64,000 nucleotides of DNA from an uncultured Caldilineales bacterium (GTDB taxonomy: Bacteria > Chloroflexota > Anaerolineae > J102), in assembly GCA_964460135.1 (NCBI GenBank), contig CAYWPZ010000001.1, positions 7,469-71,468 of the forward strand, written 5' to 3'. This document shows, one piece after another, positions 4,585 to 54,688 of the stretch; the stretch's first letter is position 1, and each line of letters begins with the position of its first letter. A program made the translations under genes and the position numbers. The notes under the pieces are model-generated. The model worked only from the letters and a program-made list of their open reading frames with translations. It had not been told where the DNA came from and ran no database searches.

Positions 4585-4614
4585 AAGTCAAGCACACCGC
4601 GCACGACGCACCCC

Positions 4615-5568: not shown

Positions 5569-5606
5569 ACCGGGAGACCAGTTGCCACTTGCCACCCGCC
5601 ACCCCC

Positions 5607-8537: not shown

Positions 8538-8566
8538 CGTCCGTCCACCGCCTCCCGGTTGCTCCT

Positions 8567-15900: not shown

Positions 15901-17153
15901 GTCTGACCGAATCCTTCCGCATCGCCTTGCGGGCGCTGACCGCCAACAAACTGCGTTCGATCCTGACCATGCTGGGCATCATCATCGGCGTGGGCGCGGT
16001 CATCGCCCTGATGAGCGTCGGCCAGGGCGTGCAAAAGCTGGTGACCGAACAACTGCAAAGCGCCGGCTCGAATCTCTTGATCGTCATCCCCGGCAACCTG
16101 GAGGAGGCGCAAGGCCCTGGCAGCCTGCGCCGCAACCGGCCCGACAAACCCCTGACCATCAACGATTGGCGGGCGATCAACGACCCCCTGCAGGTGACCG
16201 ATGTCTTGGCGGCTGTGCCCGAACTGGACGGCGGCGGCGACGTGGTGCGCGGAAAGAACAGCCTGCGCACGACCATCACCGGCACCACCGCCGCTTTCGG
16301 CCCCGTCCGCAACTATGTGGCTGCCCAGGGGCGTTTCATCGACGACGACGACCTGGCCGCCGAAGCCCGCGTCGTCGCTTTGGGCAGCAAAGTGGCCGCG
16401 TCCTTGTTCAGCCAAAATGAAGACCCCATCGGCCAGTCGATCAAGATCAACGGCATCCCCTTCCGCGTGGTGGGGGTGATGGAAGAAAAGGGCGGCGGCG
16501 GCTTTGGCAGCTTCGACAACCAGATCTTCACCCCGCTGACAACCGCCCACAAGCGCCTCTTTCCCAACCTGCGCAGCCAAAGCGGCGAACCCGTGCTCTC
16601 GTTGGTCATGGTCAAAGTCAGCGCCGAGGAGCATCTGGAGGATGTGGCCCGCCAGATCGAGGAACTTCTGCGCTCTCGCCACGAGATCACCTATCTCGAC
16701 GCCGATGACTTCACGGTCATCAACCAGGCCGACATCCTTGACATCTTTGGCAGCATCACCGGCGTGCTCACCACCTTCCTGGGCGGCATCGCCGCCATCA
16801 GCCTGTTGGTGGGCGGGATCGGGATCATGAATATCATGCTCGTCTCCGTCACCGAACGCACGCGTGAGATCGGACTGCGCAAAGCCGTGGGAGCCAAGCG
16901 CCGCCACATCCTCACCCAGTTTCTGGTCGAGGCCATGGTGCTCAGCATCATCGGCGGCGTCATCGGCATGATCCTGGGTTTTGTTGGCGCCCAGGCGCTG
17001 GCCGGCCTGTCCGAGGACCTGGAAGCGGTCGTCACGATGCAGGCCGTGCTCCTGGCCACCGGTTTCAGCGCCCTCGTCGGCCTCTTCTTTGGCATCTACC
17101 CGGCCCTGCGCGCTTCGCAACTGCACCCCATCGACGCCCTGCGCTACGAATGA
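15897..17153 (+). CDS. ABC transporter permease, MacB/FtsX-like
   Basis: N-terminal TM, a large periplasmic domain and a C-terminal FtsX 4-TM bundle (..[16 protein letters not shown]..). Confidence 0.88.
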
Positions 17154-17166
17154 CGTGAGGCGTGAA

Positions 17167-28001: not shown

Positions 28002-30620
28002 CTATTCCACCCGAAACGACACCACCGGCGAGAGGATTGGCTGCTCGTCGTCGCTGCGGCCCACCGCCTGCACCGTGTGCGACCCCGGCGCCAAATCCCA
28101 CCAAGCCGACCAGGGCCAGGCCCCCACTTCGGCGATGGCGACGCCGTCCACGATGTAGGCAACCCCGATCAGTGGCGCCTCGCCGATGTAGCTGATGGCA
28201 AGTTGCAGGCGCTGGGCCTGGGCCGGCAGGCGCGGGTCGATCAGATAGGTGGCGCTGGCGCCAGGGCTGAGGAGTTGGAGAGTCTGACCTGCCTGCACCG
28301 AGGAAAGCGCGGGCGGTGGGCGACGGAGAGGGGGCAGAGAGTGGAGATCGGCGGGCGCCAGGAGCAGGCCCTCTTGCTGCGCCCAGTCGCGCAGCAGGGG
28401 TGGCGGGTTCCAGGCCACCCGCTGGCCCAGGGCAGCGGCCGGGGTGCCGGCCAAGGCTGGTTGGCCGCTGCGCAGGTCGATGGCGATGCGCTGGTATTGG
28501 TCGTCGGCGCGGGTGGGTTCCGTGCCGGCGATGAAGAGTTCGCGCCGCACTTGGGGGCAGTCGGGCGCGGCCAGGAGGCCGGAGGGGGTGCAGATATCGC
28601 GCTCGACCAGATCATCAGAGCGGAAAAAGGGCCGCACGGGCAGGGTCTTGTGGGCGACGGTCATGAAATCGCGCCAGATGGGGGCGGCGCCGTCGATGCC
28701 GCTGGCCCCGTACATGGGGGTGTTGTCGGCGTTGCCCACCCACACCCCGGCCAGCAGGTCGGGGGTGAAGCCGATAGTCCAGTTGTCGCGCCAGTCGGTG
28801 GTGGTGCCGGTTTTGGCGGCGGCGGGGCGTTCCAGGCGCAGCGGGCTGGAGAAGCCGAAACTGGCGGCGCGGGCGTCATTGTCGGCGAGGATGTCGGTGA
28901 CCAGGTCGGCGGTGTGGGGGTCGAGTACGGCGGGGAAGGCGACGGCGGTAGGCAGGTTCCAACCGGCAGGGTTGTAGACCTGGCGGCCGTACAGGCCGGC
29001 GTCGAACAGCAATTGGCCCTCCCGGTCTTCGATGCGGGCAATGGCGAGGGGCTGCACCGGCTGCCCGGCGTGGGCGAAGGGGGCGTAGGCAGCGGTCAGT
29101 TCCAGCAGATTGACCTCGCCCCCACCCAGGGTCAGGGCCAGGCCATAGCGCTCGGCGGCGCCAAAGGTGGTGATGCCGTGGCGTCGGGCTTGGGTCAGGA
29201 GGGCATCGATGCCGATGGCCTCGAGCGTCCGCACGGCGGGGATGTTGTAGGAATTGGCCAGGGCGGCGCGCACCGAGACGGGGCCATGAAACCGCTGGTC
29301 GTAGTTGAGCGGTCGGTAGGGGTCGCCTTCGCGGGTGATGAAAGTGGCAGGGACGTCGGCCAGGACGGTGGCGGCGGTGAAGGGGTCGCGTCCGGCGGCG
29401 GCGCTGAGGCCGGGGTCAAGGGCGATGGCGTAGGTGAGCGGTTTGAGGGCCGAGCCGGGTTGTCGCCAGGCAAGGGCGGCGTTGAGGGCGCCGGAGATGT
29501 GGGCGGCGAAGTAGTCGGGGCTGCCGACAAAGGCGAGCAGGGCGCCGGTGACAGGGTCGAGGGCGACGAGGGCGGCGTTCTCGGCCCGGCGCTGGATGGG
29601 TAGGTCGGGGCCGGGGCGGTTCATCTCGGCCAGACGGCGGCGGATGGCGGCCTCGGCCGCTTGCGTCAGGGGCAGATCGAGGGTGGTGGTGATGCTCAGG
29701 CCGCCCCTAGCAAGGTGGTCGCGGCCGAGCGCCCGCTCGACCTGACCCTGCACATAGAAGACGAAGTGCGGGGCGCTGATGGGAAAGGGTGTGGCGGCAA
29801 AATGAAGCGGTTCGGCGGCGGTGCGGCGGGCCTCATCCCGGTCGAGATAGCCGGCCTCGACCATGAGGTGGAGCACCTGCTGCTGCCTGGCCCTGGCGGC
29901 GTCGGCGTTTTCGATCGGGTTGTAGGCCACGGGGGCCTGCGGCAGACCGGCCAGGAGTGCGCATTGGGCCAGGTCAAGCTCGGCGGCCGGGCGGCCAAAG
30001 TAGGAACGAGCGGCGGCCTCGATGCCGGTGGCAAAATGGCCGTAGTAGATGTTGTTGAGGTAGAGGGCCAGGATTTCGTCTTTGGCCAGGTGGTGCTCCA
30101 GGCGCCAAGCCAGCAGGGCCTCGCGCAGTTTGCGGCGCAGGCTGCGTTCGTAACGCTCGCTTTCGTCCAACAGCAGCAGCCGGGCGAGCTGCTGGGTGAG
30201 GGTGGAGCCGCCCTGGACGACGGCGCCATGACGCCAGTCGGCCCAGGCCGCACGCAGGATGGCGAGAAGGTCGACGCCGGGGTGTTGGTAGAAGCGTTTG
30301 TCTTCGGTGGCGATGGTGGCCTGACGGCAGGCCAAGGGCATGTCGGCGAGAGAGATGGGCTGGTAGTTGCCACGCGCCGGGTCGGCGATCTCGTAGAGGA
30401 GCAGGCCGTTGCGGTCGAGGATACGGGTGGCGGGGACGGCGGGGGCCGCCATGCGGTCGAGGCCGGGCAGTGGGCCGAAGAGCAGTGGGCCGAAAAAGAG
30501 GAGGGCGAGACCACTCCCCAGCGCCAACAGGATGACGGGCGCCAGCAAGAGCAGCCGGCGGCGGGCGCGATGCCGGCCGGCGGACGGCAGGCGGTTGGCG
30601 GCGTCAGTCGGCGCCGGCAA
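28002..30620 (-). CDS. Penicillin-binding protein 1C-like (PbpC): glycosyltransferase + transpeptidase + PBP1C C-terminal domain
   Basis: TM helix RRRLLLLAPVILLALGSGLALLF. GT51 motifs (..ATEDKRFYQHPGVD.., RKLREALLAWRLE). Transpeptidase SxxK-like region. C-terminal beta-sandwich domain. The start is uncertain: there is no in-frame ATG between the SGNH gene stop and the TM helix, so the start is provisionally placed at the TTG at 30620, overlapping the SGNH gene by 17 nt. Confidence 0.8.
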   Translation of the reverse strand: MPAPTDAANRLPSAGRHRARRRLLLLAPVILLALGSGLALLFFGPLLFGPLPGLDRMAAPAVPATRILDRNGLLLYEIADPARGNYQPISLADMPLACRQATIATEDKRFYQHPGVDLLAILRAAWADWRHGAVVQGGSTLTQQLARLLLLDESERYERSLRRKLREALLAWRLEHHLAKDEILALYLNNIYYGHFATGIEAAARSYFGRPAAELDLAQCALLAGLPQAPVAYNPIENADAARARQQQVLHLMVEAGYLDRDEARRTAAEPLHFAATPFPISAPHFVFYVQGQVERALGRDHLARGGLSITTTLDLPLTQAAEAAIRRRLAEMNRPGPDLPIQRRAENAALVALDPVTGALLAFVGSPDYFAAHISGALNAALAWRQPGSALKPLTYAIALDPGLSAAAGRDPFTAATVLADVPATFITREGDPYRPLNYDQRFHGPVSVRAALANSYNIPAVRTLEAIGIDALLTQARRHGITTFGAAERYGLALTLGGGEVNLLELTAAYAPFAHAGQPVQPLAIARIEDREGQLLFDAGLYGRQVYNPAGWNLPTAVAFPAVLDPHTADLVTDILADNDARAASFGFSSPLRLERPAAAKTGTTTDWRDNWTIGFTPDLLAGVWVGNADNTPMYGASGIDGAAPIWRDFMTVAHKTLPVRPFFRSDDLVERDICTPSGLLAAPDCPQVRRELFIAGTEPTRADDQYQRIAIDLRSGQPALAGTPAAALGQRVAWNPPPLLRDWAQQEGLLLAPADLHSLPPLRRPPPALSSVQAGQTLQLLSPGASATYLIDPRLPAQAQRLQLAISYIGEAPLIGVAYIVDGVAIAEVGAWPWSAWWDLAPGSHTVQAVGRSDDEQPILSPVVSFRVE

Positions 30621-31386
30621 CCCGGCCGGCGTTGCCGCTGGCGAGGCGCGGGAAGTAGGTGAGTCCGTCGCCTGCGTAATGCCAGTAGTAGGCGGACAGG
30701 AAGGCGTCGGCGATGCGCCGGTGGCCGAGGTCATTGGGGTGAAAGCCATCGCCATGAAAATCGGGCGGGAAAGGGTTGGGCTGGTCGGGTGAGGAGAGGC
30801 CGTCGGGCCGATCGACCGTGGCCGCCCAGAGGTCGGCCACAGCCAGGCCGCGCGCTTCGGCTTCCTGTCGGATCCAGCCGTTGTAGATATGCGCCCGCGC
30901 CCGGCGTTCTTCATCCCATCCGACCCAGGGCGTGACGCCAACAACGATCTGGGCCTGAGGTGCGAGCTGGCGGAAACGGTCGAGCATGGCGCCGTAGTGG
31001 GCCTGCCATTCGTCTGCGGGCACTTGTTCGCAAGTCGGGCTGGGCAGGATGTCGTTGACGCCCAGTTCGATGAAAAGGATGGTGGGCGGGGGCAATTGTT
31101 CCAGCCGCTCCCAGCGCGCCTCTAGCCGGCCGAGCGTACACATACCCTCCCAAAAGAGCAGGCGGATCTGGCCGGGGCGCTGGTCTTGAAGGCTGGTGAA
31201 GACATGATGGCGGAACATGGCGGCCTCGCTGCTGGCATAGAGGCCGCGGGTGATGCTGTCGCCGATGATCCAGACGGCATTGAGCGGCGGCGGTTCGTCG
31301 GCCTCGATCTGGCAGGCTTGCAGCCCAGCCATCAGGACGAATAAAACCAGGAGTGCATGGAGCCAAAGACGGCGCCGGCGGGGCAT
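30604..31386 (-). CDS. SGNH/GDSL family hydrolase (secreted)
   Basis: Signal peptide, GDSITRG block I, GVND block III and C-terminal DGFHPNDLGH block V. Confidence 0.85.
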   Translation of the reverse strand: MPRRRRLWLHALLVLFVLMAGLQACQIEADEPPPLNAVWIIGDSITRGLYASSEAAMFRHHVFTSLQDQRPGQIRLLFWEGMCTLGRLEARWERLEQLPPPTILFIELGVNDILPSPTCEQVPADEWQAHYGAMLDRFRQLAPQAQIVVGVTPWVGWDEERRARAHIYNGWIRQEAEARGLAVADLWAATVDRPDGLSSPDQPNPFPPDFHGDGFHPNDLGHRRIADAFLSAYYWHYAGDGLTYFPRLASGNAGRVAGAD

Positions 31387-31392
31387 AGGTTC

Positions 31393-32136
31393 CTATGGTT
31401 GGCGGCCGCCCCGCCGGACGGCGATGATCTCGGCCATGATGCTGACGGCGATCTCGGCGGGCGTCTCGGCGCGGATGGCAAGGCCGATGGGCGCATGGAC
31501 GCGTTCCAGCAGGGTGGGAGCGATGCCCTGTTCGCGTTCCAGCAGGTCGAAAACGGCGCGGATGCGACGCCTGGAGCCGATCATTCCGATATAGGCAAGC
31601 GGCCGGTCGAGGATGGTGGTCAGGCACTCCACGTCCAGGCTGTGCCCGCGCGTGACCAGGACGACATAGGTTTCTGGGTCGGCAGCCAGGGCGCTCACGG
31701 TCTGGCGGATGTCGGCGGCGATGACGTCGGCGGCGCGCGGGAAACGGCTGCGGTTGGCAAACTGCGCCCGGTCATCGATGACGATGACGCTGAAATCGCA
31801 CAGCGCGCCCAGTTCGCACAGCGGGACGGCGATGTGGCCGGCGCCGACGATCAAGAGGCGGGGCGGCCGTTGTTGCACCTCCACAAAGATATCGATCCCT
31901 TGGTCGAGGTAGCGGAGCAGCCGATGGCGGCCTTCGGCCAACGTCTGCACGGCGTCAGCCAGCGCCTGCGCTTCCAGCTCCCCCAAGCCCAGGCTGCCTT
32001 GCGGCGGGCGATCGAGCCAGATGATGGCCCTGGCCCCCACCTGCTCGCGCCGCGGGCTGCGAATGACCCTCGCCAGGGCCACGGGTTCTTTTTGCTGGAG
32101 CGATACGGCCAGGGCCTCGAGCAAGGCAGCGGACAT
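31393..32136 (-). CDS. XdhC/CoxI-family accessory protein
   Basis: N-terminal XdhC_CoxI domain, plus a Rossmann-like domain with LLIVGAGHIAVPL. ATG at 32136 behind GAGGGA. Confidence 0.8.
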   Translation of the reverse strand: MSAALLEALAVSLQQKEPVALARVIRSPRREQVGARAIIWLDRPPQGSLGLGELEAQALADAVQTLAEGRHRLLRYLDQGIDIFVEVQQRPPRLLIVGAGHIAVPLCELGALCDFSVIVIDDRAQFANRSRFPRAADVIAADIRQTVSALAADPETYVVLVTRGHSLDVECLTTILDRPLAYIGMIGSRRRIRAVFDLLEREQGIAPTLLERVHAPIGLAIRAETPAEIAVSIMAEIIAVRRGGRQP

Positions 32137-32141
32137 AGACC

Positions 32142-32774
32142 CTAGTCCCTCAGGTAGGGGTTGCTGCGGCGCTCGCGGCCGACGGCGGTGAAGGGGCCGT
32201 GGCCGGGAAAGAGGGTGTAGTCGTCGGGCAGGGTGAGGATCTGGCTCTGGATGGCGGCGATGAGCTGAGGATAGCTGCAACCGGGGAAGTCGGTGCGACC
32301 GATGCCGCCGGCAAAGACGGTGTCGCCCACCCAGGCGCGACGACCGGCGTGGTCGATGAAGATGACGGAGCCAGGCGAGTGGCCGGGGACATGACGGATC
32401 TCGAAGCTGGTTTCGCCCAGGCGGAGATCATCGCCCGGCGCCAGAAAGCCATCCACCGGCGGCGGCGGCCCCCACTTGCGCCCCAACCAGGCGGCAGTGG
32501 CCTCGGCCGCCCAGCCCAACACGGGCAATTCGTCTTGATGCAGGTGGAAGGTGGCGCCGGTGGCGGCCTGCACCTGCGGCACGGCCAGGACGTGGTCGAA
32601 ATGGGCGTGGGTGTTGATGATGCGGGTCACCCGTGCGGATGCGCGCCTGACCAGATCGAGGATGTCATCGGCCTCGTCGCCGGGGTCGATGAGCAGGGCC
32701 TCGTGGCTGGCCTCGTCCACGAGCAGAAAGCAGTTGACTTCAAGGAGGCCGACGATCAGGTGATGAGTTTGCAT
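32142..32774 (-). CDS. MBL-fold metallo-hydrolase (glyoxalase II-like)
   Basis: Motifs THAHFDH, GHSPG and GDTVF. ATG at 32774. Confidence 0.85.
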   Translation of the reverse strand: MQTHHLIVGLLEVNCFLLVDEASHEALLIDPGDEADDILDLVRRASARVTRIINTHAHFDHVLAVPQVQAATGATFHLHQDELPVLGWAAEATAAWLGRKWGPPPPVDGFLAPGDDLRLGETSFEIRHVPGHSPGSVIFIDHAGRRAWVGDTVFAGGIGRTDFPGCSYPQLIAAIQSQILTLPDDYTLFPGHGPFTAVGRERRSNPYLRD

Positions 32775-33003: not shown

Positions 33004-35256
33004 ATGATTCGAAGTGTCTTCAAGCTGCCGGCCTCAGCGCTCGTTCGACGAGGCTGGGCCCTGGCGGTGTTGGTGGCCTTGCCGGCGCTGGCGCCTTTGC
33101 TGCGGCAGGGTTTCTGGGCCAGCGACGACGGTCGCTTTCACGTCTATCGCCTGGCCGCCCTGGCCGCAGCCTGGGGCCAGGGTGTGCTCCACCCCCGCCT
33201 GTTCCCCCAGTTCGGCTTTGGCTACGGCCAGGCCGTGCTGAATTTCTATTCGCCGGCGGGCTATTGGCCGGGGGCGCTGCTGAGCTGGCTGGGGTTCTCG
33301 CCCGCCGCCGCCGCCGAGATCACGATAGCCATCGGCTTCCTTCTGGCCGCCCTGGCCGTCTTTGGCTGCGCCCAGGCGCTGTGGGGGGCATGGGCAGGGC
33401 TGGCGGCGGCGGCCGTCTATACCTATTTCCCCTACCATCTGGCCGACGCCTATCTCCGCGGCGCCCTGCCCGAACACCTGGCCTTCATCTTCCCGCCGCT
33501 CATCTTCTGGGCCTATGCCGCCGCTTTCGAAAGAGAGACTGCCGGCGCCGACCACCGGCCGGCCGGTCTGGTTCCATCGCCGGCTGCCATCCCCCCGCTT
33601 CTGGCTGCCAGCCTGGCTTTGGCCGCCCTTGCCCTCGTGCACCACCTGAGTTCGCTGCTGCTGGCGCCGGTCGTGCTCGCCTTCGTGCTGGCGCTGGCGG
33701 CCAGCGGCAGGCAATGGCGGTTGCTGGCGGGGGTCGGCGGCTCCCTGGCGCTGGCGGTAGGACTCAGCGCCGGCTATTGGCTGCCGGCGCTGGTCGAACG
33801 GAGCAGCGTGGGGCTGGCAGCAGGAGCCTCGCGCGGGTTCGAGCATCATTTGCTCGAACCGACAGGGCTGGTGCAGCGGTCATGGGCTTACCTCTATCCT
33901 GCCGCCGGCGGCTACATCGTCTATCCTCTGAGCTGGCTGACGGCGACCCTGCCGCTCGTGGTCTTGCTCCTGCTCATCCTGCGCTGGCGAGGGAACGCCC
34001 GACCCGCCCACACACCCCAAATCGTCTTTCATCTCGGCCTTTTTGCCGTCACCGTCTTTCTGATCACTACCGCTTCGCTCTGGCTCTGGTTTCCCCTCAC
34101 GCCCGTCCTGGGCCAACTGCAATACCCCTGGCGCTTTCTGATCCTGACCGCCGTCGCCCTGGCTGTGGTCGCGGCGGCGATCATTCCCCTCCAGTCCCGC
34201 CTGCGGCCGGCACTGGTCGTCGCCGTGGTTGCGGCAGCAGCCCTTGTCGTTGGCATGGGGCGGCTGTCGTTGCCGCCGCTGGAACTGCCGGCCGGCCAGG
34301 TCTGGTCGCCGCAGCGGATGTGGGACGAAGATGCCGCGGCGGGACAGGTGGGCGCCACTTGGACGGGCGAGTTCCTGCCGGCGACGGTGAGCGAGCAGAG
34401 GTGGGCGCTCGGCCGCCGGCGCGAGGGTGCCAGCGACGGTCCCGCCCTGACAGGGCCGCTGCACCTGCGCCTGGTTGCGGAGGGTCTGAACCGCTGGCAA
34501 TTCGAGGTCGAGACGCCAACGCCGCTGTCGTTGCGCCTGCATCAGTTCCACCAACCGGGCTGGAATGCCCGCATCGATGGCCGCCCTGCCGCCGCCTTTG
34601 CCAGCGGCGAACTGGGCCTGGTGACGGTGGACATCCCGCCCGGCCTCCATCAGGTTGCCTTGCGGTTCGGCTCGACGCCCGCTCGGCTTGCCGGCGCTCT
34701 GACTGCCTTCGCATCGACGTTGCTGTGGGCGGGATTGGCCTGGCGCCAGGGCAGAAAGGATCGCGCCCTGCGCTCCGCCGCCGCCCTGCTGCCGATCCTG
34801 GCCCTGGCGCTGGCGCTCAACGGCCTGGGCATCGGCCGCCGAACCCACACCCCGCAGCCCATCCAGGCCCAACTGGCGGATGTCGCCCAGCTGATTGGCT
34901 GGGAGGCGCGCCCCGGGCGCGAGGCCGAGGCGCTTGATGTGACCCTCTATTGGCTGGCCCTGCGCGACGCCGGTGTGGATTACAAAGTGTTCGTCCACCT
35001 GCTGGATGGAAACGGCCAGGTTGTCTCGCAGCACGACGGCGACCCGGTCGGCGGCTACACTCCCACCACCCGCTGGCGTCGCGGCGAGATCATCGCCGAC
35101 AGCCACCGCATCCCGCTGCCGGCAGGCACGGCGGCGGGCGAGTACGGTCTGAAGGCGGGGATGTACGAATTGACAGCGGGCGGGCCGGCCAACCTGCCGG
35201 TCGAGCCATTCACGGTCGATGGCCGGATCGAACTGGGAACGGTGGAGGTGAAATAG
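33004..35256 (+). CDS. GT-C fold membrane glycosyltransferase (ArnT/PMT/GT39-like) with C-terminal extracytoplasmic domain, paralog 1
   Basis: About 13 TM helices. Acidic dyad in the first loop (FWASDDGRFHVYRL). C-terminal ~110-aa module shared with the genes at 35257 and 38345 (..DYKVFVHLLDGNGQVVSQHDGDPVGGYTPTTRWRRGEII..). Confidence 0.7.
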   Translation: MIRSVFKLPASALVRRGWALAVLVALPALAPLLRQGFWASDDGRFHVYRLAALAAAWGQGVLHPRLFPQFGFGYGQAVLNFYSPAGYWPGALLSWLGFSPAAAAEITIAIGFLLAALAVFGCAQALWGAWAGLAAAAVYTYFPYHLADAYLRGALPEHLAFIFPPLIFWAYAAAFERETAGADHRPAGLVPSPAAIPPLLAASLALAALALVHHLSSLLLAPVVLAFVLALAASGRQWRLLAGVGGSLALAVGLSAGYWLPALVERSSVGLAAGASRGFEHHLLEPTGLVQRSWAYLYPAAGGYIVYPLSWLTATLPLVVLLLLILRWRGNARPAHTPQIVFHLGLFAVTVFLITTASLWLWFPLTPVLGQLQYPWRFLILTAVALAVVAAAIIPLQSRLRPALVVAVVAAAALVVGMGRLSLPPLELPAGQVWSPQRMWDEDAAAGQVGATWTGEFLPATVSEQRWALGRRREGASDGPALTGPLHLRLVAEGLNRWQFEVETPTPLSLRLHQFHQPGWNARIDGRPAAAFASGELGLVTVDIPPGLHQVALRFGSTPARLAGALTAFASTLLWAGLAWRQGRKDRALRSAAALLPILALALALNGLGIGRRTHTPQPIQAQLADVAQLIGWEARPGREAEALDVTLYWLALRDAGVDYKVFVHLLDGNGQVVSQHDGDPVGGYTPTTRWRRGEIIADSHRIPLPAGTAAGEYGLKAGMYELTAGGPANLPVEPFTVDGRIELGTVEVK

Positions 35257-36996
35257 ATGGGCGGTCGGCGATCCTTCCTCCTCATCCTGGCCCTCTACCT
35301 GGCCCTGGCAACGGCCTATTCGTTGTCATTGCCTTTGGGCGAGGCCCCTGACGAAGCCGACCACTTTGCCTACGCCCGCCATCTGGCGCTAAACCGCAGC
35401 CTGCCGCAAGGCGCCGCCATCACCCAGGGCAAGCATCCGCCACTCTACCATGCCGCCGTCGCCGCCGTGGGCGCTTGGACGGGCATGGATTTCGACTGGC
35501 TGCGTTCCAATCCCGACGCCTTCCCCCTCGGCCCGGCGGCTCCGCCCAACTTCTTCGTCCACACCAATCTGGAGGCATGGCCCTGGCAGGGGGGGCCGCT
35601 GGCGATGCGGCTGGGCAGGCTGCTTTCGGTGCTGTTGGGTGCAATCACGGTCTGGGCTGCATGGCGTCTTGGTCGTGATTGCTTTGCGGGCGCGATGGAG
35701 GCCGGTCTGCTTGCGGGCGTCTTTCTAGCCACCCTGCCCGGCTTCCTGTTCATCAGCGGAGCCGTGAACAACGACAATGCCGCCGGCGCTTGCGGCGGCC
35801 TGGCCCTGGTGATCATGGCGGCCATAATCGGGCGAGGCCTGAGTCTCGGTCGCAGCATCGGGCTGGGCCTGGTTCTGGGGCTGGGGTTGCTGTCGAAGGT
35901 GGGGACGCTGGCCCTATGGCCGCTGGCAGCCCTGGCGATGGTGGGTGGGCTGTGGCCCGAACGACGGCAGGCGCGGGCCTGGTTGCGGGGGCTGGGGCAC
36001 CTGGTCGTCGGCCTGGGGGTGGGGACGCTGGTCGCCTCGCCCTGGCTGCTGCGCAATTGGCGGCTCTATGGCGACCCTCTGGGCTGGGAATTGGTGCGGG
36101 CCACAGTCGACCAGCGCGCCTCGCCGCTTGGTTTTGCCGATCTTGTCTGGCTGGCGAAAGGGTTGTTTGGCTACTTTTGGGGGCGCTTTGGCGCCGTCGG
36201 CCAGGTGCGTTTGCCCGCCTGGGCCTATCTCGTGGCCCTTGTCTTGAGCCTTTTCCTGCTGGCCGGCGCCGTCATCTTTTGGCGCCGCCGCCTGTCCGAC
36301 TATGGCGCCCGCTTCTCGGTTGCGCTCCTCGCCCTGGCGCCCCTGCTGACCCTGGCCTCGATCGTGCAGTACTCGACCATCGCTCTGGGTACCGACCAGG
36401 CGCGGCTTATGTGGCCGGCGGCGGCTGCCCTGGGCGCCTGGGCGGGGGCAGGGCTGGCCGGTTGGGCCGAGGCGCTGCGCTCGCGCCGTTTGCTGCCGAT
36501 CGCGAGTGCGGTGGTGATGATGACCTACGCGCTGGCCGCCCTCTTGCTGGCGCTGCGCCCGGCCTTTGCGCCGCCGCCGGCCGTCGCTTCACTGGCCGCT
36601 GCCGAAAACCTGGCCTCATTCGGCGATGATTTCGACCTCGTTGCCGTCCAACTGCCCGATCGCCCCCTGGCTGTTGGCGAAACAGCCGCCATCACCCTGT
36701 TTTGGCGGGCGCGACGGCCGCTGGGGGCAGATCTGCGCCCGGTGGTGCGTCTTGTCCATCAGGATGGCTGGCTGGCGGCCGAGCGAGATCATAGCCCGGC
36801 CCAGGGTCGCCTCAGCACCGACCGCTGGCCGGCGGGGGAGGTCATCGCCGACACGTTGACGCTGGCGCCCAACCCGGCCGGCGGCGGTGAATTTGCCCTG
36901 TGGCTGGGGGTGAGACCGTTCCGGGGGGAGTGGTTGGTCGCTCGGCCGGCCGCCGATGGTGTGTTCGTGCGGCTGGGCAGCCTCCACTTCGAATGA
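35257..36996 (+). CDS. GT-C fold membrane glycosyltransferase, paralog 2
   Basis: ATG at 35257 behind GGAGG. First-loop GEAPDEADHFAYARH. 11-12 TM helices. The C-terminal module is related to paralog 1. Confidence 0.7.
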   Translation: MGGRRSFLLILALYLALATAYSLSLPLGEAPDEADHFAYARHLALNRSLPQGAAITQGKHPPLYHAAVAAVGAWTGMDFDWLRSNPDAFPLGPAAPPNFFVHTNLEAWPWQGGPLAMRLGRLLSVLLGAITVWAAWRLGRDCFAGAMEAGLLAGVFLATLPGFLFISGAVNNDNAAGACGGLALVIMAAIIGRGLSLGRSIGLGLVLGLGLLSKVGTLALWPLAALAMVGGLWPERRQARAWLRGLGHLVVGLGVGTLVASPWLLRNWRLYGDPLGWELVRATVDQRASPLGFADLVWLAKGLFGYFWGRFGAVGQVRLPAWAYLVALVLSLFLLAGAVIFWRRRLSDYGARFSVALLALAPLLTLASIVQYSTIALGTDQARLMWPAAAALGAWAGAGLAGWAEALRSRRLLPIASAVVMMTYALAALLLALRPAFAPPPAVASLAAAENLASFGDDFDLVAVQLPDRPLAVGETAAITLFWRARRPLGADLRPVVRLVHQDGWLAAERDHSPAQGRLSTDRWPAGEVIADTLTLAPNPAGGGEFALWLGVRPFRGEWLVARPAADGVFVRLGSLHFE

Positions 36997-37029
36997 GATG
37001 GCGCCGCTTGCAGGCGCGGTCTTGCCGGC

Positions 37030-38313
37030 CTACTGCCCCTGGGCCAGGAGTCCCTGCTCGTACAGGAAGCCGGCCAGCGTTTCGGCGGCAAGGCGGTGGC
37101 CGGCCTCGTTCCAATGGCCGTTGATGGGGAAGTGCAGGCGGGCGCCATCGGCAGCCAGGAAGACGGGAACCAGATCGAGGGTGGGGATGCCGGCCCCAAC
37201 AAGGATGCGCAGCGCCTCGCGCCGGGGCTGCTCGACCGACCAGTCCTTTCCTTGCATGCGCGGGTAGCGGGCCTCGATGCGTTGCCATTCGCCGGCGTAG
37301 ATCTCCTCTTGCGAGTTGGCCAGGACGACAGCGAACCCGGCGCCCATGCCTCGCGCCTCTGCCTGTATCTCCATCAGCAGGGCGGCGGTGAGGTCGAAGG
37401 CGGACTGCCAGGCCGGCGCGACCGGCGCCTGGTAGACGCCGAAGACGAGGGGAACGTAGTCCGGGCCTTGTGCGATGAGGGTGGTCTCTTTGCCGGGGCG
37501 GATGATGCCGGTGCGGGCAAGACGGGCGGCCAGACGGGGCGCAGCAAGGCGCAGGCGGGGATTGGCCCAGCGGTAGAAGGCAGAATGGCGATGGAGCCAG
37601 TCGCCCAGACCGGTGAGCCGACCGGGGGGGATGGGCGCCGAACGTTCGGCGGAGACGACGGTGTTTTCGGATGGCGGCGGCGGCGCCTGGGCCGGGTCGA
37701 AGGGGAAGTCTTCGAGGACGAGCCGGCCATCCTGGAGGTGAAAGAAGGGTTTCAGGTTGGCGCCCATGTTGGCCGCTTCGAGCGGGCGGAAGTTGTTCAT
37801 GAAGTCGTTGCGGGGGTAGAAGGCCAACACGACCAGATCCGGCCGATAGCGGCGGCCTTGTTCTCGCAGCCACAACAGTTCTTGATCAGTGCCCCAGCCC
37901 TGCACCCCGGCGGCGATGACCTCGGCCCGAAGCCCCCTCTGGTTCAGGATCTGCCCCAACTGCTGGTGAAAGGCGTCCTGCATCTCCACCTGCATGGCCT
38001 CGACGAAAGAATCGCCGAGGACGAGGATGCGGTAGACGCCCGCGGGTTTGTCGTAGCCGATGGCAGCCGGGCTGCGCAGCCCCAGGCTGTTGATCTCCAC
38101 CCGGCTATCGTACTCGTAGTTCTCGTCGTAGCTGCGACCGCTGGCGCCAGGCTGGAGCGACCAGCCGGTGATGGGGTCGGGCGTTTTCCAGAACCAGCCG
38201 GCCGGCTCGACCGGTGTGGGCGCAGCCAGCCGGAAGATGATCTCGATGGCGACGAGGACGACGATAATGTTGACGAGGACAAAGAGGCCGAGTTTGAGCG
38301 CTTTGCGGGGCAT
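37030..38313 (-). CDS. Membrane-anchored SGNH-like hydrolase (AlgX/AlgJ-type fold), candidate glycan O-acyl esterase/transferase
   Basis: N-terminal TM, then a block-I-like VLGDSFVEA and a late HWNEAGH block. ATG at 38313. Confidence 0.55.
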   Translation of the reverse strand: MPRKALKLGLFVLVNIIVVLVAIEIIFRLAAPTPVEPAGWFWKTPDPITGWSLQPGASGRSYDENYEYDSRVEINSLGLRSPAAIGYDKPAGVYRILVLGDSFVEAMQVEMQDAFHQQLGQILNQRGLRAEVIAAGVQGWGTDQELLWLREQGRRYRPDLVVLAFYPRNDFMNNFRPLEAANMGANLKPFFHLQDGRLVLEDFPFDPAQAPPPPSENTVVSAERSAPIPPGRLTGLGDWLHRHSAFYRWANPRLRLAAPRLAARLARTGIIRPGKETTLIAQGPDYVPLVFGVYQAPVAPAWQSAFDLTAALLMEIQAEARGMGAGFAVVLANSQEEIYAGEWQRIEARYPRMQGKDWSVEQPRREALRILVGAGIPTLDLVPVFLAADGARLHFPINGHWNEAGHRLAAETLAGFLYEQGLLAQGQ

Positions 38314-38344
38314 GGAGCGGGTCTGGGGGGTGAAGGGTTCGCAG

Positions 38345-40783
38345 TCAATACCGCAGCGCCGGCTGCAGGCGGATGACTTGACCAAACGGTTGGCCGGAGG
38401 GGGCGATGAGCTGGATGCCGAGAGTGTGGTTGCGGCCGCTGGCCAAGTCGGGCGGGAGGGGGAGGCTGATCTCGCCGCGCCAGGGCTGGCCGGGTTGCCA
38501 CAAGCCGGTGGGAAAGGTCGGGCCGGCGAGCGGGAAGCGGCCGAGAGCGCGGCCATCGAGCAGCAATTCGAAGTTGTAGTCGCCGCCGGGCGGTTGGTCG
38601 GCGCGCCACCAGGTGCTCAGGTGCAGCGAGTCGCCCGCCGCCAGCGGCGTCTCGGGGGCATGGTCGAAGCCCTGTTTGAAGCGGTCGTGGCCGAGGAAGG
38701 TGAAGGGGCCAAGCGGGACGGCGACGCGATGGGCGATGGGCAGGATGGCGACCGGCGGCGCCGCTGCCGGGGGGTCGATGCGAAGCGCCCCAAGCTCCAG
38801 GTGATCGCCGACGCCAGCCTCTGTCGGGATGGGGAGACGGTCGCCGGTGGCGGCGTCGTAGACGGCCAGGATGAGGCGATGGCTGCCGGGTGGGGTGGCG
38901 AGGGGGATGGCGAGGCCGTAAGGGTCGGTGATTTCGTCGCCGGGGCGCCAGCCGCTGGTGGGGCGAGCGCCGCCAACCGGCTCGGAATCCACCTGAGCCG
39001 CCACCTGGCCCACGGCATCGAGCAGTTGCAGGGTGATTTTGTAGTTGGCGCCGGTTTCGGCCAGGCTGCGCCAGTTGAGGAGGACGCGGGCAATGTCGCC
39101 GGGCTGCACCGGGCCAGGACTGACGCCGATCCCGGTCAGGGCAAAGGCCGGGCCAACGGGGACGGGCGCGGAAAATAGCCGGAGATCGGGCGGGGATTCG
39201 GCGCTGTAGGCCACGAAGCGCAGGTTGCCCACCCAGACGTCCCAGGCCTGGAAGGCGTGCGCGGCCAGATAACGCTCGATCAGCCGCTCGGGATCGGCCT
39301 GTTCGCTGGCCCAGTAGATGGCGAAGACCCGGTCGGCGGCGGCGAGGATGCGGTCGATCTCGGCCAGGGTGGCGGCGGCGTCGAGGGGGCGGGCGCGCGG
39401 CAGGGGATAGACGGGGGCCGGGCCGTGGTCGTACTGGCCGAAGGCGTCGGCCTGCCCCGGCGCCAAGAGGATGACGGCGTCTTCTGCGCCGGCCAGCGCC
39501 CGCAGATAGGCGGCCAGGCCGCGGTAGTCGTCGCGGGCGATGGTGGGGTCGTGGTAGTAGCGAGCGAGGGCAGGAACGGCGGGGAGGACGAGGAGGAGGA
39601 GCAGGGGCAGGTGGAGGAGGGAGCGCGACCAGGTCGCACCAGGCAGGCAGAGGCGAGCCGCGATCAGGCGAACGATTCGAGCGTTGCCGAGCGCCAGCAG
39701 GAGCAGGTAGGCGGGGGCGGCGAGGAGGAGGAATTTGAAGAAGACGGGGCTGAAGATGCGAAACACGAGCATGGCCGCCAGCGGCGCCAGCAGCCAAAGC
39801 AGGGGCAGGGCAGCGGCGGAGCGGCGATGAGGGAGGCGGGCAGGGGGCAGGACGGCGGCGATCAGCAACCCACTCGCGATCAACGCCGAGACGGCTAGCA
39901 GGATGAGCGGCCCCGAACAGAGGGTAGGCCCGCAACTAAAGAGGCGGAAGGTTTCTGCCAGGGCCTGGCCGGGGCCGAGTGAGACGGCAGGCGAGGGCCA
40001 GGTGCGCAATTGGCGCAGGGCGATGGGCAGCCACGGCGCATAGAGCAGGGCCGGGATGGCCTGCAAGACAAACCAGCCGAGCCTGGTTGCGCCGGGCGTT
40101 TGCTGACGGCGACGAGCCTGCCACAGCCAGAGGAGGAAGACGCAGTTGAGGGCGAGGAGGTGAATGGGAAAGGCGTAGTGGGTGTAGAGGCCGAGAGTGG
40201 CAAAGGCGATGTAGAGGACGGCCGCCGGCAGACGGGGGCGCTGGGGTTGGGCCAACAGGGCCAGGGCCAGGCCAGTGAAGGCGGCGCACGCGGTCAGGAG
40301 CTCGTACATGCGCGCTTCCTGGCTGTAGTAGATCAGGAAGGGATTGACCGCCGACAGGAAGGCGGCAGCCAGGCCCAGGCCCACCCCGCGCAGATGCAGG
40401 CCGAGGACGAACATGACGGCCACCACAACCACACCCAGGACGGCCGATAGGCCCCGCGCCCCCGTCTCGCCCAGGCCGAAGACGCGACCCCAGCCCGCCA
40501 GTAGCAGGTAGTAGGCAGGGGGGTGGATGTCGGCGGCAGCGGCGGCGAGGATGGCGGTGGGTTCTCGTCCGGCCAGGACGACCGAATTGCCCTCGTCGGC
40601 CCAAAAGCTCTGCCCGGCCAGCAGGTAGAAGCGAAGGACGGCGGCGAGGATGAGGATGAGGAGCAGGAGGAGGAGGGCGGGGCGCGAGATTGGCTCCGTC
40701 GCTGGCCGCCGGGTCTGTGGCAGAGGCGACGGCGAGGGAGGGGATGGTCTGGCGGGCGCAGCGGGCGATGGCAGAGGGGACAT
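38345..40783 (-). CDS. GT-C fold membrane glycosyltransferase, paralog 3, with two tandem copies of the shared C-terminal module
   Basis: Pro-rich N-terminus. FWADEGNSV first-loop motif. About 13 TM helices. Two C-terminal modules (..NYKITLQLLDAVGQVAAQVDSEPVGGARPTSGWRPGDEI..). Confidence 0.65.
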   Translation of the reverse strand: MSPLPSPAAPARPSPPSPSPLPQTRRPATEPISRPALLLLLLILILAAVLRFYLLAGQSFWADEGNSVVLAGREPTAILAAAAADIHPPAYYLLLAGWGRVFGLGETGARGLSAVLGVVVVAVMFVLGLHLRGVGLGLAAAFLSAVNPFLIYYSQEARMYELLTACAAFTGLALALLAQPQRPRLPAAVLYIAFATLGLYTHYAFPIHLLALNCVFLLWLWQARRRQQTPGATRLGWFVLQAIPALLYAPWLPIALRQLRTWPSPAVSLGPGQALAETFRLFSCGPTLCSGPLILLAVSALIASGLLIAAVLPPARLPHRRSAAALPLLWLLAPLAAMLVFRIFSPVFFKFLLLAAPAYLLLLALGNARIVRLIAARLCLPGATWSRSLLHLPLLLLLVLPAVPALARYYHDPTIARDDYRGLAAYLRALAGAEDAVILLAPGQADAFGQYDHGPAPVYPLPRARPLDAAATLAEIDRILAAADRVFAIYWASEQADPERLIERYLAAHAFQAWDVWVGNLRFVAYSAESPPDLRLFSAPVPVGPAFALTGIGVSPGPVQPGDIARVLLNWRSLAETGANYKITLQLLDAVGQVAAQVDSEPVGGARPTSGWRPGDEITDPYGLAIPLATPPGSHRLILAVYDAATGDRLPIPTEAGVGDHLELGALRIDPPAAAPPVAILPIAHRVAVPLGPFTFLGHDRFKQGFDHAPETPLAAGDSLHLSTWWRADQPPGGDYNFELLLDGRALGRFPLAGPTFPTGLWQPGQPWRGEISLPLPPDLASGRNHTLGIQLIAPSGQPFGQVIRLQPALRY

Positions 40784-46884: not shown

Positions 46885-47697
46885 ATGCCCATCCGCCTCC
46901 TCGCCTGCGATCTCGACGGCACCCTGGCCGACCATCACGGCCATATCAGCGACGAAGCCGTGGCCGCACTCGACCGCGCCCGCGCCGAGGGCATCCTCCT
47001 CGTCGTTGCCACCGGCCGCCTGCCCTTTGTCATCGGCCCGTTTCTTGACCGGCTGGACGTGAGCGCCGAGCCGTTCATCACCGCTCAGGGCGCCCTCATC
47101 GGCCACCGCGATGGCCGCATCCTCCGCCGACTGACGCTCGACGCCGCCATTGCCCGCGAGGCCGCCGCCATCGCCCGGGCTTGGGGCGCAGGCATGGCCT
47201 TTTTCCACGAAGATCAGATCATCGTCGATGGCTACGCCTTTCCGCCGGCGCAGTACGAGGCCTGGTTTGGGCAGCACGGCCGGCTGGAGGCGGCGGCGGC
47301 GGCGCATCTGGATGGCGACCTGATCAAGTTCATGGCCATCCATCCCGATGTCGAGGCCGTCCCGGCGCTGGTCGATGGCTTACGGGCGGCGCTCGGCCCC
47401 CGCGCCGAGATCACCCGCTCGTGGCATCATTTCGTCGAGGGCACCACGCCCGGCGCCGACAAAGGCGCGGCCCTGGCCTGGCTGTGCGCCCGGCTTGGGG
47501 TTGCCAGAGATGAAGTTCTGGCCTTGGGCGACGGCGGCAACGATGTGACCATGCTGCGCTGGGCCGGGCAGTCGGCTGCCCCGGCCAATGGCGACCCGGC
47601 CGCCCTTGCCGTCGCCGGCTGGGTGGCGCCGCCGCTGCTGCCGGGAACATCCCCCCATCCAGCGGCGGCCAGCCTGGCGCATTTCTTGGCCTGGTAG
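46885..47697 (+). CDS. Cof-type HAD-IIB phosphatase
   Basis: DLDGTL motif I and GDGGNDVTM motif IV. Confidence 0.82.
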   Translation: MPIRLLACDLDGTLADHHGHISDEAVAALDRARAEGILLVVATGRLPFVIGPFLDRLDVSAEPFITAQGALIGHRDGRILRRLTLDAAIAREAAAIARAWGAGMAFFHEDQIIVDGYAFPPAQYEAWFGQHGRLEAAAAAHLDGDLIKFMAIHPDVEAVPALVDGLRAALGPRAEITRSWHHFVEGTTPGADKGAALAWLCARLGVARDEVLALGDGGNDVTMLRWAGQSAAPANGDPAALAVAGWVAPPLLPGTSPHPAAASLAHFLAW

Positions 47698-47707
47698 GAG
47701 GCTGCAA

Positions 47708-48043
47708 ATGACCTGGCAAACCTGGCTACTCTTGTTGGGCGCTATCATCACCGAGGTGATCGGTACGGCGGCGCTCCGTTTCACCACTGGCTTTACGAAA
47801 TGGCTGCCGCTGGCCGTGGTCGTCGCCGGCTACGCCGCTTCGTTCTACCTGCTGGCGCTGGTGCTCAAACACGATGTGCCCATCGGCATCATCTATGCCA
47901 TCTGGTCGGGGATCGGCACGGTGGGGATCACGCTGGTGGGGGTGATCTTGTGGCGCGAGCACCTGAGTCTGGGGGCGGTGATCGGCGTCGCCCTGGTGAT
48001 CGGCGGGGTGGCGCTGATCAATTTGAGCAGCCAGTCGCACTGA
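47708..48043 (+). CDS. SMR-family small multidrug resistance transporter (EmrE/QacE-like)
   Basis: 111 aa with 4 TM helices and the conserved TM1 glutamate (IITEVIGTAALRF). ATG behind GGAGG. Confidence 0.85.
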   Translation: MTWQTWLLLLGAIITEVIGTAALRFTTGFTKWLPLAVVVAGYAASFYLLALVLKHDVPIGIIYAIWSGIGTVGITLVGVILWREHLSLGAVIGVALVIGGVALINLSSQSH

Positions 48044-52458: not shown

Positions 52459-53457
52459 ATGTCTCAAGAGAGCGACCTGCCGTTCGGGAGCGAGTTCTCT
52501 CCCAGCCAAATCGACTTATCCGAAATCCTGGAAATTGTCGAAACGTACTCGGGGGATGTGCAGGCGTTGCAGGACGCGATCCAGGCTCGCTATTTCAGCG
52601 CACACGGCGGTGGAAGCGCCCGCAATCAGAAGACCCTGGCGATGAACTGCCGGCTGGGGATGAAGGCATACGGCATCATCGACGAGACAGCCACGATCAC
52701 AGCCTTTGGACGCAGGCTCTATCGAATCAGAGAGAATGGGCCGGCCTTGTACACCCTTCTGGCCAGACACATCCTGCTGCACTTGAAGGGCATGACGTTG
52801 GTGCAATGCATTCAAGATATGACGGCGGCCGGCGAGGAAGTCAATTTGACGACGCTGCGCCAGGCTTTGGCCGAGCGCGGCATCCACTATCCGGCGGGTG
52901 GCAAACATCCCAGTATGATGCGTTTGTGGCTTGTCAAAGCAGGCGTGTTTGTGGGCGCTCGTTGGCAGGTGGACAACCTGAGATTGAAAGAAGTGCTGGG
53001 CATCAACCCAGCCGACTTCGACACCCTTGCCCCTCTGACAGCCGCACAACGTTGTTTCTTGCTGGCGCTGGCCAATACAGGCCTCAGCACGCCGCAGCCG
53101 GCGAATGAGATTGCCCGGCTCGCTGCGGCAACTTATGGCGTTCGCTTCCCCGAGAAGAGCTTGCCCAAACTCGTGCTCAACGCCCTGGTCGAGGCTGGAT
53201 ACATTACCGCCACGAAGACGACCGAAGGTCGCGGGGCGAAACCCTTCCTGGTGTCACCCACCGAAAAACTGGTCCACGATGTGGTCGAGCCGCTGCTAGA
53301 ACAGATGAAGTCGCAGACGGATATGAAGCTGGTTCAGTTGATGCGCAAACCGCTTGCCGACGTCCTCGCCGAGCTTGACGCCCAAGACCGGTATATCGCT
53401 GGATTGGCGCTCGAAGCTCCTCCATCGTCATGGTCGATCGACGCGACCTCGATCTGA
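52459..53457 (+). CDS. Hypothetical 332-aa protein on the low-GC island; candidate restriction endonuclease or specificity partner of the adjacent methyltransferase
   Basis: ATG at 52459. Local GC is about 55% against a 68% background. It lies directly upstream of, and co-oriented with, the beta-class MTase. No family motif is recognisable by eye. Confidence 0.45.
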   Translation: MSQESDLPFGSEFSPSQIDLSEILEIVETYSGDVQALQDAIQARYFSAHGGGSARNQKTLAMNCRLGMKAYGIIDETATITAFGRRLYRIRENGPALYTLLARHILLHLKGMTLVQCIQDMTAAGEEVNLTTLRQALAERGIHYPAGGKHPSMMRLWLVKAGVFVGARWQVDNLRLKEVLGINPADFDTLAPLTAAQRCFLLALANTGLSTPQPANEIARLAAATYGVRFPEKSLPKLVLNALVEAGYITATKTTEGRGAKPFLVSPTEKLVHDVVEPLLEQMKSQTDMKLVQLMRKPLADVLAELDAQDRYIAGLALEAPPSSWSIDATSI

Positions 53458-53550: not shown

Positions 53551-54688
53551 ATGAGCGCCGAACACACGTCTACAGCTACCCTTTTCCTCGAAACCAGCCT
53601 CGGAAAAATCTATCAGGGCGATTCACTCCGCTTTCTCGCTGATCTGGAACCTGCCAATGCCGATCTGATCATAACCAGCCCTCCCTTCGGTTTGGTCAGG
53701 AAGAAAGAATATGGCAATGTCGAAGCCAACCAGTATCTAGACTGGTTCAAACCCTTTGCTGCACAATTTCACCGTGTGCTGAAGGAAACGGGCAGTCTTG
53801 TGATCGACATCGGCGGGGCCTGGAATCCGGGAACGCCGACGCGCAGCCTCTATCACTTCAAGCTGCTGATCATGCTTTGTGAGGAATTCGGCTTTCATCT
53901 CGCCCAGGATTTCTACTGGTGGAATCCTTCCAGGCTGCCCACGCCCGCCGAATGGGTGACAGTACGCCACATTCGCGTCAAAGACGCCATTGATACCGTT
54001 TGGTGGCTTTCCAAGACCCCCCTGGCCCAAGGCGAGCAATCGGCGTGTGCTGCAACCCTACAGCAACAGTATGCAAGAACTGCTCAAAAAGGGCTATCGA
54101 GCCAAAAAACGCCCCTCCGGCCACGACATCAGCGATAAATTCGCGGTGGACAACGGCGCTGCTATCCCTCCCAACCTGATCGCCATTCCAAATACCGAGA
54201 GCAACAGCCACTACCTCCGCTATTGTCAGGAACGAGCCATCACACCTCACCCCGCCCGCTACCCTGCCGCCCTGCCCGAATACTTCATTCGTATGCTGAC
54301 CGATAAAGGCGACCTGGTGTTCGATCCATTTGCCGGCAGCTGCGTCACCGGCGAAGTCGGCGAACGGCTTCAGCGACGCTGGTTGTGCGTTGAACTGGTC
54401 GAAGAGTACTTGCTCGGCGCCCGCGGTCGATTCGAACAAACTGGCATTCCCGAACCGGAGATCAAAACCGCAAGCGATGGGGATGACAACTATTATCGCA
54501 TGCCGCACCCTGGCATCCTCTGGAACGGCGCCACGGAGACGCCATTGGCTGCCGATGGCGGCAAGGCGCGGCATTTTTCCGGCGATCCGGCCAGAAGCGG
54601 CAGCCGGACGACGCCAGCACATGCTCCTCCAAGTCGCTCCTCCGCTCCCCTTCTCGACCTGCTTCGAGAGCAAACGTCTGATGCCTGA
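53551..54688 (+). pseudogene. Beta-class N4-cytosine/N6-adenine DNA methyltransferase (SPPF motif IV before FxGxG motif I), interrupted by a +1 frameshift in a C6 homopolymer (54017-54022)
   Basis: Frame 1 (53551-54138) carries IITSPPFG. Frame 2 (53990-54688) carries VFDPFAGSCVTG. Removing one C from gaCCCCCCtgg gives a continuous ..[20 protein letters not shown].. product. ATG is preceded by GAGGAAG. Confidence 0.7.

Follow-up and report, generated by a model that had tools for sequence, protein, structure and literature searches.

Organization of the locus

The genes considered here, which we named A, B, C and D, lie side by side in DNA of an uncultured Caldilineales bacterium (Chloroflexota), within a 64-kilobase (kb) stretch that was analysed as a whole and is referred to below as the window. 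A, B and D encode polytopic membrane glycosyltransferases of the GT-C type that end in one or two copies of a common module, and C encodes an SGNH protein (Table 1). The same gene calls were made independently on three metagenome contigs that encode identical proteins. Hydropathy analysis indicated numerous transmembrane (TM) segments in the products of A, B and D and a single, N-terminal TM helix in that of C (amino acids (aa) 8-26). On translation, the stop codon of A (TAG) directly abuts the ATG of B; C lies 31 nucleotides downstream of D on the minus strand and is convergent with B. An initial annotation of this DNA had described the SGNH gene as interleaved with the glycosyltransferase genes. 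A one-TM SGNH gene indeed stands between B and D, but it is not interspersed among all three. No Rfam families and no tRNAs were found in the window, and a scan for promoters and terminators returned one weak promoter-like site, upstream of D, and was otherwise uninformative.

Table 1 Features of the four-gene locus and of the DegT/GT2/GT4 block (positions within the window)
Feature	Position	Strand	Description
Gene A	33004-35256	+	750 aa; GT-C-fold membrane glycosyltransferase, PF10131 (PTPS_related) family
A acidic motif D41-D42	33124-33129	+	First extracytoplasmic loop; putative catalytic/metal-binding site; from translation
A additional beta-sandwich	34462-34668	+	aa 487-555; between core and hairpin; AlphaFold2 secondary structure
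A TM hairpin	34678-34824	+	aa 559-607; hydropathy, AlphaFold2 model, translation
A module	34855-35253	+	aa 618-750; beta-sandwich; AlphaFold2, BLASTP and profile matches
Gene B	35257-36996	+	579 aa; PMT_2/GT39-like GT-C glycosyltransferase
B first-loop motif PLGEAPDEADH	35332-35364	+	D32-E33 at 35350-35355; from translation
B module	36619-36993	+	aa 455-579; BLASTP and profile matches
Gene C	37030-38313	-	427 aa; N-terminally anchored SGNH / AlgX-AlgJ-like enzyme
Gene D	38345-40783	-	812 aa; PMT_2/GT39-like GT-C glycosyltransferase; middle domain (aa 410-535) conserved; two modules
D first-loop motif FWADEGNS	40583-40606	-	D63-E64 at 40592-40597; from translation
D module copy 1 (D1)	38768-39151	-	aa 545-672; BLASTP and profile matches
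D module copy 2 (D2)	38348-38686	-	aa 700-812; most divergent of the four copies
DegT	3487-4584		PseC/ArnB-like; flanks GT2
GT2	4615-5568	+	Candidate donor-forming enzyme, unlinked; two C-terminal TM helices (~aa 236-254, 269-287)
GT4	5589-6824		Flanks GT2 (Pfam)

A shared beta-sandwich module without a family model

The module spans about 115-130 aa, and a six-frame scan found exactly four copies in the 64 kb, one each in A and B and two in D, in agreement with the copy numbers given in the initial annotation. Composition-corrected BLASTP connected A631-750 to D552-670 with an expect value (E) of 1e-17, A to B469-552 with E 1e-10 and B to D with E 3e-7; the second copy in D (D718-784) was linked to A weakly (E 3e-3). 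Control profiles were built from orthologs of other genomes, with all window sequences excluded. The profile of D2 orthologs matched the modules of A (2.5e-14), B (6.5e-10) and D1 (3.6e-14), a D1-type profile matched the A module at 1.3e-29, and overall such window-free profiles connect all four copies (E 1e-10 to 1e-29). Together with the composition-corrected BLASTP results, they rule out a compositional artefact, which the initial annotation had named as a possible source of the similarity. AlphaFold2 modelled the A module as a nine-strand beta-sandwich with a mean predicted local distance difference test (pLDDT) score of 95.4. The four modules are thus homologous and share a beta-sandwich fold.

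Fold neighbours of the A module include carbohydrate-binding domains, with Wzt-type domains among the close ones. The module is a beta-sandwich attached to a carbohydrate-active enzyme, as is characteristic of carbohydrate-binding modules (CBMs), and it presents a long loop with strongly conserved polar and aromatic residues (QHDGDPxGGxTPTxRWxxGE), in which P61 and W71 are invariant. Neither Pfam-A (2025 copy) nor NCBIfam 20.0 holds a model that covers it. A Pfam scan of 50 module sequences at E<=1 produced only scattered sub-threshold matches (Rv2993c-like_N, MG2, DUF4832), and we therefore conclude that it falls outside the known families. When the profiles of the module, A and D were searched against PDB sequences, nothing meaningful emerged; D by itself gave one chance match only, and we found no account of the module in the literature searched.

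The module is very common in Chloroflexota. A profile search against 1.84 billion representative proteins, clustered at 50% identity, returned 27,952 matching clusters at E<=1e-3 and 20,027 at E<=1e-10, and all named carriers belong to this phylum. The top carriers are proteins of 900-1,400 aa with three to four tandem copies. A Pfam scan of nine of them revealed a GT-C domain at the N terminus of six (PMT_2, TMEM260-like, PTPS_related or YfhO) and none in the other three. Homologs of A always have one module (120 proteins). Among homologs of B, 24 proteins have no module, 83 have one and 13 have two, and D orthologs have either one (6) or two (29). This variation in copy number, from zero to two in B homologs, one to two in D orthologs and up to four in other carriers, fits an accessory, non-catalytic domain.

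In a neighbour-joining tree of 60 modules, the types A, B, D1 and D2 each form their own clade, and identity is 49-59% within a type and 23-33% across types. The monophyly and divergence of the types indicate that the copies are old, were inherited with their host proteins and have been maintained by selection. Recent module shuffling or gene conversion was ruled out, as each type is monophyletic and old. Stand-alone modules were likewise rejected: a first module search yielded short proteins only, and these were gene-call fragments of A-type proteins. On a 1.9-megabase Anaerolineae contig (L001), for instance, the A-like (8275-10534) and B-like (3579-5388) genes are each split into two calls, apparently by frameshifts, which may be assembly errors, and such split genes explain why the first search gave only short 'proteins'.

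GT-C cores of two distinct families

All three glycosyltransferases have a polytopic TM core that superposes on solved GT-C enzymes, and their first extracytoplasmic loop, which follows TM1, carries a conserved acidic motif. The DD, DE and DEGNS motifs noticed in this loop by the initial annotation were recovered by translation, and acidic residues of each are invariant among homologs. Invariant positions of the first loop comprise D42, G43, H46, Y48 and R49 in A (36 homologs), P26, L27, E29-E33, D35 and H36 in B (36 homologs), and W61, D63, E64 and G65 in D (35 orthologs). The orthologs of D conserve the motifs DE, DIHPP and YSQEARMY.

Family assignments differ among the three proteins. A scores 17.7 against PF10131, for which the cut-off is 26.4, and PF10131 is on record for most of its 120 closest homologs (50-72% identity); some A orthologs also carry PF09586 (YfhO). 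PF10131 belongs to the GT-C clan of Pfam, and its function is listed as unknown (PMC7801869). D matches PMT_2 (PF13231) with 27.5 bits, above the cut-off of 26.1, and TIGR03663 in part. B itself has no PF13231 match, and many of its orthologs carry this domain and are named GT39 family. The B profile also matches yeast STT3 (E 6.5e-6) in the TM3-4 region around the second acidic motif ('SYDNEA'), and the invariant residues N172-D173 of B fall in this region. None of the three proteins belongs to an unrelated transporter family, the other outcome that the initial annotation had named as speaking against its reading.

Comparison of full-length alignments by hhalign scored high but was driven by the module, and was therefore repeated on trimmed cores. 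Without modules, hhalign gave 96.5% for B versus D (E 8.5e-10), 21.7% for A versus D and 0.9% for A versus B, and BLASTP detected no significant similarity between the TM cores of A, B and D. Hence, the proposal of three paralogous GT-C enzymes holds for their GT-C nature and not for the paralogy of their cores. A, B and D are GT-C enzymes of two distinct families, with related cores in B and D. A is related to the other two at the fold level only, and the sequence that all three have in common is the module.

Anatomy of A and membrane topology

The full-length AlphaFold2 model of A (pLDDT 87.3, predicted template modelling score 0.90) shows, in this order, a TM core (aa 1-418), a conserved loop, an additional beta-sandwich, a TM hairpin and the module, at the boundaries given in Table 1. 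The additional beta-sandwich has two-domain fold matches to GH2 enzymes, and the arabinofuranosyltransferases AftA and AftD are among the closest fold matches of A. The loop that connects the two hairpin helices is rich in Arg and Lys (WRQGRKDRALRS), which by the positive-inside rule would place both beta-sandwich domains of A outside the membrane. Arg-rich loops before the last core helix of B and D likewise point to an extracytoplasmic position of their modules.

The SGNH protein C

Three conserved sequence blocks are present in C, namely GDS (38008-38016), ND and, towards the C terminus, HW, and blocks I-III align to SGNH esterases. Its Pfam scores lie half a bit under the thresholds, with 32.4 versus a cut-off of 32.9 for Lipase_GDSL_2 and 26.0 versus 26.5 for ALGX. 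At 37111-37122 (minus strand) C reads NGHW, and in the alignment an ortholog (L013) and a more distant homolog (L088) read D-x-HW. The putative triad Asp thus appears to be replaced by Asn in this genome. A metagenome scan for relatives of C retrieved a single distant locus, L088. C may acylate or deacylate an envelope polymer, and it is loosely associated with the cluster.

AlgX/AlgJ/PatB-type SGNH-like O-acetyltransferases and SGNH esterases have the same N-terminal anchor and the same GDS, ND and C-terminal (D)-x-HW blocks as C. C differs from AlgX, AlgJ and PatB in its sub-threshold Pfam scores, in the Asn at the position of the motif Asp, and in having no MBOAT (AlgI/PatA-like) partner in the open reading frames (ORFs) scanned.

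A second SGNH/DUF459 protein (30604-31332) is encoded in an operon-like run on the minus strand (28002-32280), together with XdhC and a class A penicillin-binding protein (PBP) with a BiPBP_C tail. Its gene overlaps the start of the PBP gene by 17 nucleotides, and it could be a peptidoglycan-modifying esterase paired with the PBP synthase.

Conservation of the cluster and gene neighbourhood

Neighbourhoods were compared with about 85 loci fetched from other genomes. In three other genomes of Chloroflexota (L005, L006, L007), A and B are likewise neighbours, and the stop codon of one gene abuts or overlaps the start codon of the other. The relatives L001, L005, L007 and L089 have arrays in which three to five genes encode the module, and most of these genes carry a GT-C Pfam domain or match the A or B core. 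D has at least 80 orthologous loci in metagenome-assembled genomes of Chloroflexota, and in these 80 species-level genomes it does not adjoin A or B. D orthologs recurrently have a gene for a GH5-like protein on their upstream side (45 loci), a neighbouring gene for an SH3_3 protein (34 loci) and, downstream, a metallo-beta-lactamase gene (24-29 loci; examples are L010, L013 and L054). Outside the window, the order of D followed by the SGNH gene was seen in L013 only.

In the window, the metallo-beta-lactamase gene (32142-32774, minus strand) lies beyond A, with C, B and A standing between it and D. Its product is 81% identical over 140 residues to that of the gene following D in L010. Three arrangements can thus be distinguished: D followed by the metallo-beta-lactamase gene in most relatives, D-C-metallo-beta-lactamase in L013, and D-C-(B and A inverted)-metallo-beta-lactamase in the window. 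In the assembly that contains L013, the A-B pair resides on a separate contig. These arrangements, together with the separate contig, lead us to conclude that the four-gene cluster is a lineage-specific juxtaposition that arose by insertion or rearrangement. Of the four genes, only A and B form a conserved unit, and D is a separate one.

SH3_3 proteins also occur beside the A-B pair in L006. The window itself encodes secreted-type proteins at 16981-18906 (plus strand) and 6960-8570 (minus strand), with SH3_3 plus PD40 beta-propeller repeats and with Gmad2 Ig-like domains. Clusters of the A-B type adjoin futalosine-pathway and menaquinone-type genes (CofH_C radical SAM, UbiA, VitK2_biosynth) in L005 (15981-20811) and L089 (6726-7580, 15317-16513). 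One D ortholog (54% identity) is located on a 3.7-kb contig binned as Halieaceae (Gammaproteobacteria; L011, JAAENL010000473.1); nearly all other matches are from Chloroflexota, and this contig is probably mis-binned.

The DegT/GT2/GT4 block and possible donor supply

The initial annotation had linked the four genes to a block of DegT, GT2 and GT4 genes. This block exists (3487-6824), but its link to the cluster is without comparative support, as DegT or GT2 homologs were found near A-B or D at none of the other-genome loci. It lies 26 kb from the cluster, with dnaN/dnaA, an ABC exporter, glycolysis genes and the class A PBP gene in between. The GT2 product matches the NCBIfam models of PgfS, ArnC and AglJ over nearly the full length, with scores below the cut-offs, and its architecture is that of polyprenyl-phosphate sugar synthases. 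In L001, a GT2 and a GT4 gene are situated directly upstream of the B-like and A-like genes; this GT2 and that of the window are not orthologous. The three components of known lipid-linked systems, i.e., a GT2 polyprenyl-phosphate sugar synthase, a flippase and a GT-C enzyme, are not co-located or co-conserved here, and the cluster contains no GT2 or GtrA/SMR gene.

A small membrane protein of the SMR/EmrE family is encoded 7 kb from the cluster (47588-48043, plus strand); it resembles Qac/EmrE efflux models best, in each case with a score under the cut-off. Flippases of the ArnE/ArnF type are members of the SMR/EmrE superfamily.

Two further features of the window concern its genomic context. 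The genes dnaN (minus strand) and dnaA (plus strand) are divergent (8567-11786), and the window therefore probably spans the region of the chromosomal replication origin. Between 52000 and 56000, the guanine-plus-cytosine content is 0.58-0.60, compared to about 0.68 elsewhere. This stretch may be acquired DNA. One of its ORFs (52459-53457) matches no family, and a short fragment of an N6/N4 DNA methylase (53551-54138) is located there, immediately upstream of RtcB.

Proposed function and alternative explanations

We consider it likely that A, B and D are extracytoplasmic, polyprenyl-phosphate-sugar-dependent GT-C glycosyltransferases of the cell envelope, with a C-terminal module that binds the acceptor or serves in its positioning or as a spacer. 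Briefly, a sugar would be taken from a polyprenyl-phosphate-linked donor at the site formed by the first outer loop (DD, DE and DE, respectively) and the TM core, and would then be passed to an acceptor outside the membrane, which could be a polysaccharide of the envelope or a protein that is secreted or anchored. The one or two immunoglobulin (Ig)-like beta-sandwich modules, right after the last TM helix, would most likely bind the acceptor polymer or keep it near the active site. A and B, a translationally coupled pair, would probably act on the same substrate, and D is a separate unit. Use of a lipid-linked donor is suggested by family membership; acceptor binding by the module is proposed by analogy, and the donor and acceptor named here are putative. 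The observation made in the initial annotation is thus confirmed, and its interpretation is partly supported. Carbohydrate binding by the module, which it had also put forward, agrees with the fold neighbours and would follow by the same analogy.

Three-component glycosylation with GT-C enzymes is well established for lipoteichoic acid, wall teichoic acid and O-antigens (PMC5836110, PMC8035078). A close architectural parallel to the module-bearing proteins described here is offered by GT136 ORF12 of Citrobacter youngae, also a GT-C enzyme with an Ig-like C-terminal domain after the last TM helix and with a polyprenyl-phosphate-linked donor (PMC11127046). The ligand of its C-terminal CBM is the acceptor O-polysaccharide in unmodified form, and with expression from a plasmid the enzyme can do without this CBM; the CBMs of EmbC and AftD bind arabinan in the same acceptor-binding role (PMC11127046). 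The genes for the donor synthase and flippase are adjacent to ORF12, which has one CBM, whereas such genes are not adjacent to A, B and D, which have one or two modules of another sequence family. The mycobacterial EmbA, EmbB, EmbC and AftD likewise combine a polytopic GT-C core with a following extracytoplasmic beta-sandwich, and their genes can be clustered (embCAB). However, A, B and D show no detectable sequence similarity to the CBMs or cores of Emb and Aft proteins, the module family differs, and the two beta-sandwich domains of A are separated by an additional TM hairpin. With ArnT and PMT_2 (GT83/GT39-like) and with YfhO and PF10131 (clan CL0111), A, B and D have in common the acidic motif in the first extracytoplasmic loop, HPP-type motifs and Pfam matches; ArnT, Pmt and YfhO are without this module, as far as the module profile against PDB sequences shows.

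Several observations weigh against our proposal. No flippase or polyprenyl-phosphate sugar synthase gene is found beside the cluster, and the only candidate GT2, 26 kb away, is not syntenic elsewhere. The cluster in the window is itself the product of a rearrangement. C has Asn where its relatives hold the Asp of D-x-HW, and no MBOAT partner was detected among about 50 window ORFs scanned against Pfam.

It is possible, though rather unlikely, that A, B and D are protein O-glycosyltransferases comparable to actinobacterial Pmt, streptococcal Pgf GT-C enzymes or TMEM260, in which case the module would recognise protein acceptors. The PMT_2/GT39-like nature of B and D, the fusion of the module to TMEM260-like cores as well, and the resemblance of the window GT2 to PgfS and ArnC above others are in accordance with this scenario. 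However, AftA and AftD are among the closest fold matches of A, and arrays of differing GT-C genes resemble polysaccharide assembly lines such as embCAB. We regard it as unlikely that the module plays a structural part, as an Ig-like spacer or for oligomerisation, and that it does not bind substrate but lifts or orients the enzyme in the wall or mediates A-B or homo-oligomer contacts. The conserved polar and aromatic loop with P61 and W71 is more typical of a ligand site, and Wzt-type carbohydrate-binding domains are close fold neighbours. The domain of the Wzt O-antigen ABC transporter, however, resides in the cytoplasm on an ATPase and has no sequence-level homology to the module, whose fold is no closer to Wzt than to GH2 Ig-like domains.

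Still more improbable is the view that A, B, C and D form one dedicated seven-gene pathway with the DegT/GT2/GT4 block, even if all of these envelope-glycan-type genes are present within a single 64-kb window, GT2 resembles polyprenyl-phosphate sugar synthases, DegT is ArnB/PseC-like, and L001 has GT2 and GT4 directly upstream of its B-like and A-like genes. The GT2 of L001 is not orthologous to that of the window, the D orthologs of 80 genomes do not have A, B, DegT or GT2 as neighbours, and the three arrangements around D, with A-B on another contig in the L013 assembly, point to secondary insertion.

Going beyond the proposed role in envelope glycosyl transfer, one could speculate, with a low chance of being right, that the module represents a novel carbohydrate-binding family spread across the phylum, a marker of the machinery for a still uncharacterised envelope glycopolymer of Chloroflexota. 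A and B, GT-C enzymes of two different subfamilies with the same module, would then work together in a heteromeric complex comparable to EmbA-EmbB or Pmt1-Pmt2, in which the modules would hand the growing polymer between active sites.

Implications for the envelope of Chloroflexota

The combination of a GT-C core with a C-terminal beta-sandwich is a known theme, so the proteins described here add a family and not a principle. Their architecture is of a known kind, and the module itself stands for a large and uncurated family of domains that typifies the GT-C enzymes of Chloroflexota. Little is understood of the envelope in the filamentous members of this phylum (Anaerolineae, Caldilineae), for which no glycopolymer pathway has been established. 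As it matches about 28,000 clusters and has no model in Pfam-A or NCBIfam, the module is a useful target for annotation, and it offers a handle for retrieving the acceptor polymer.

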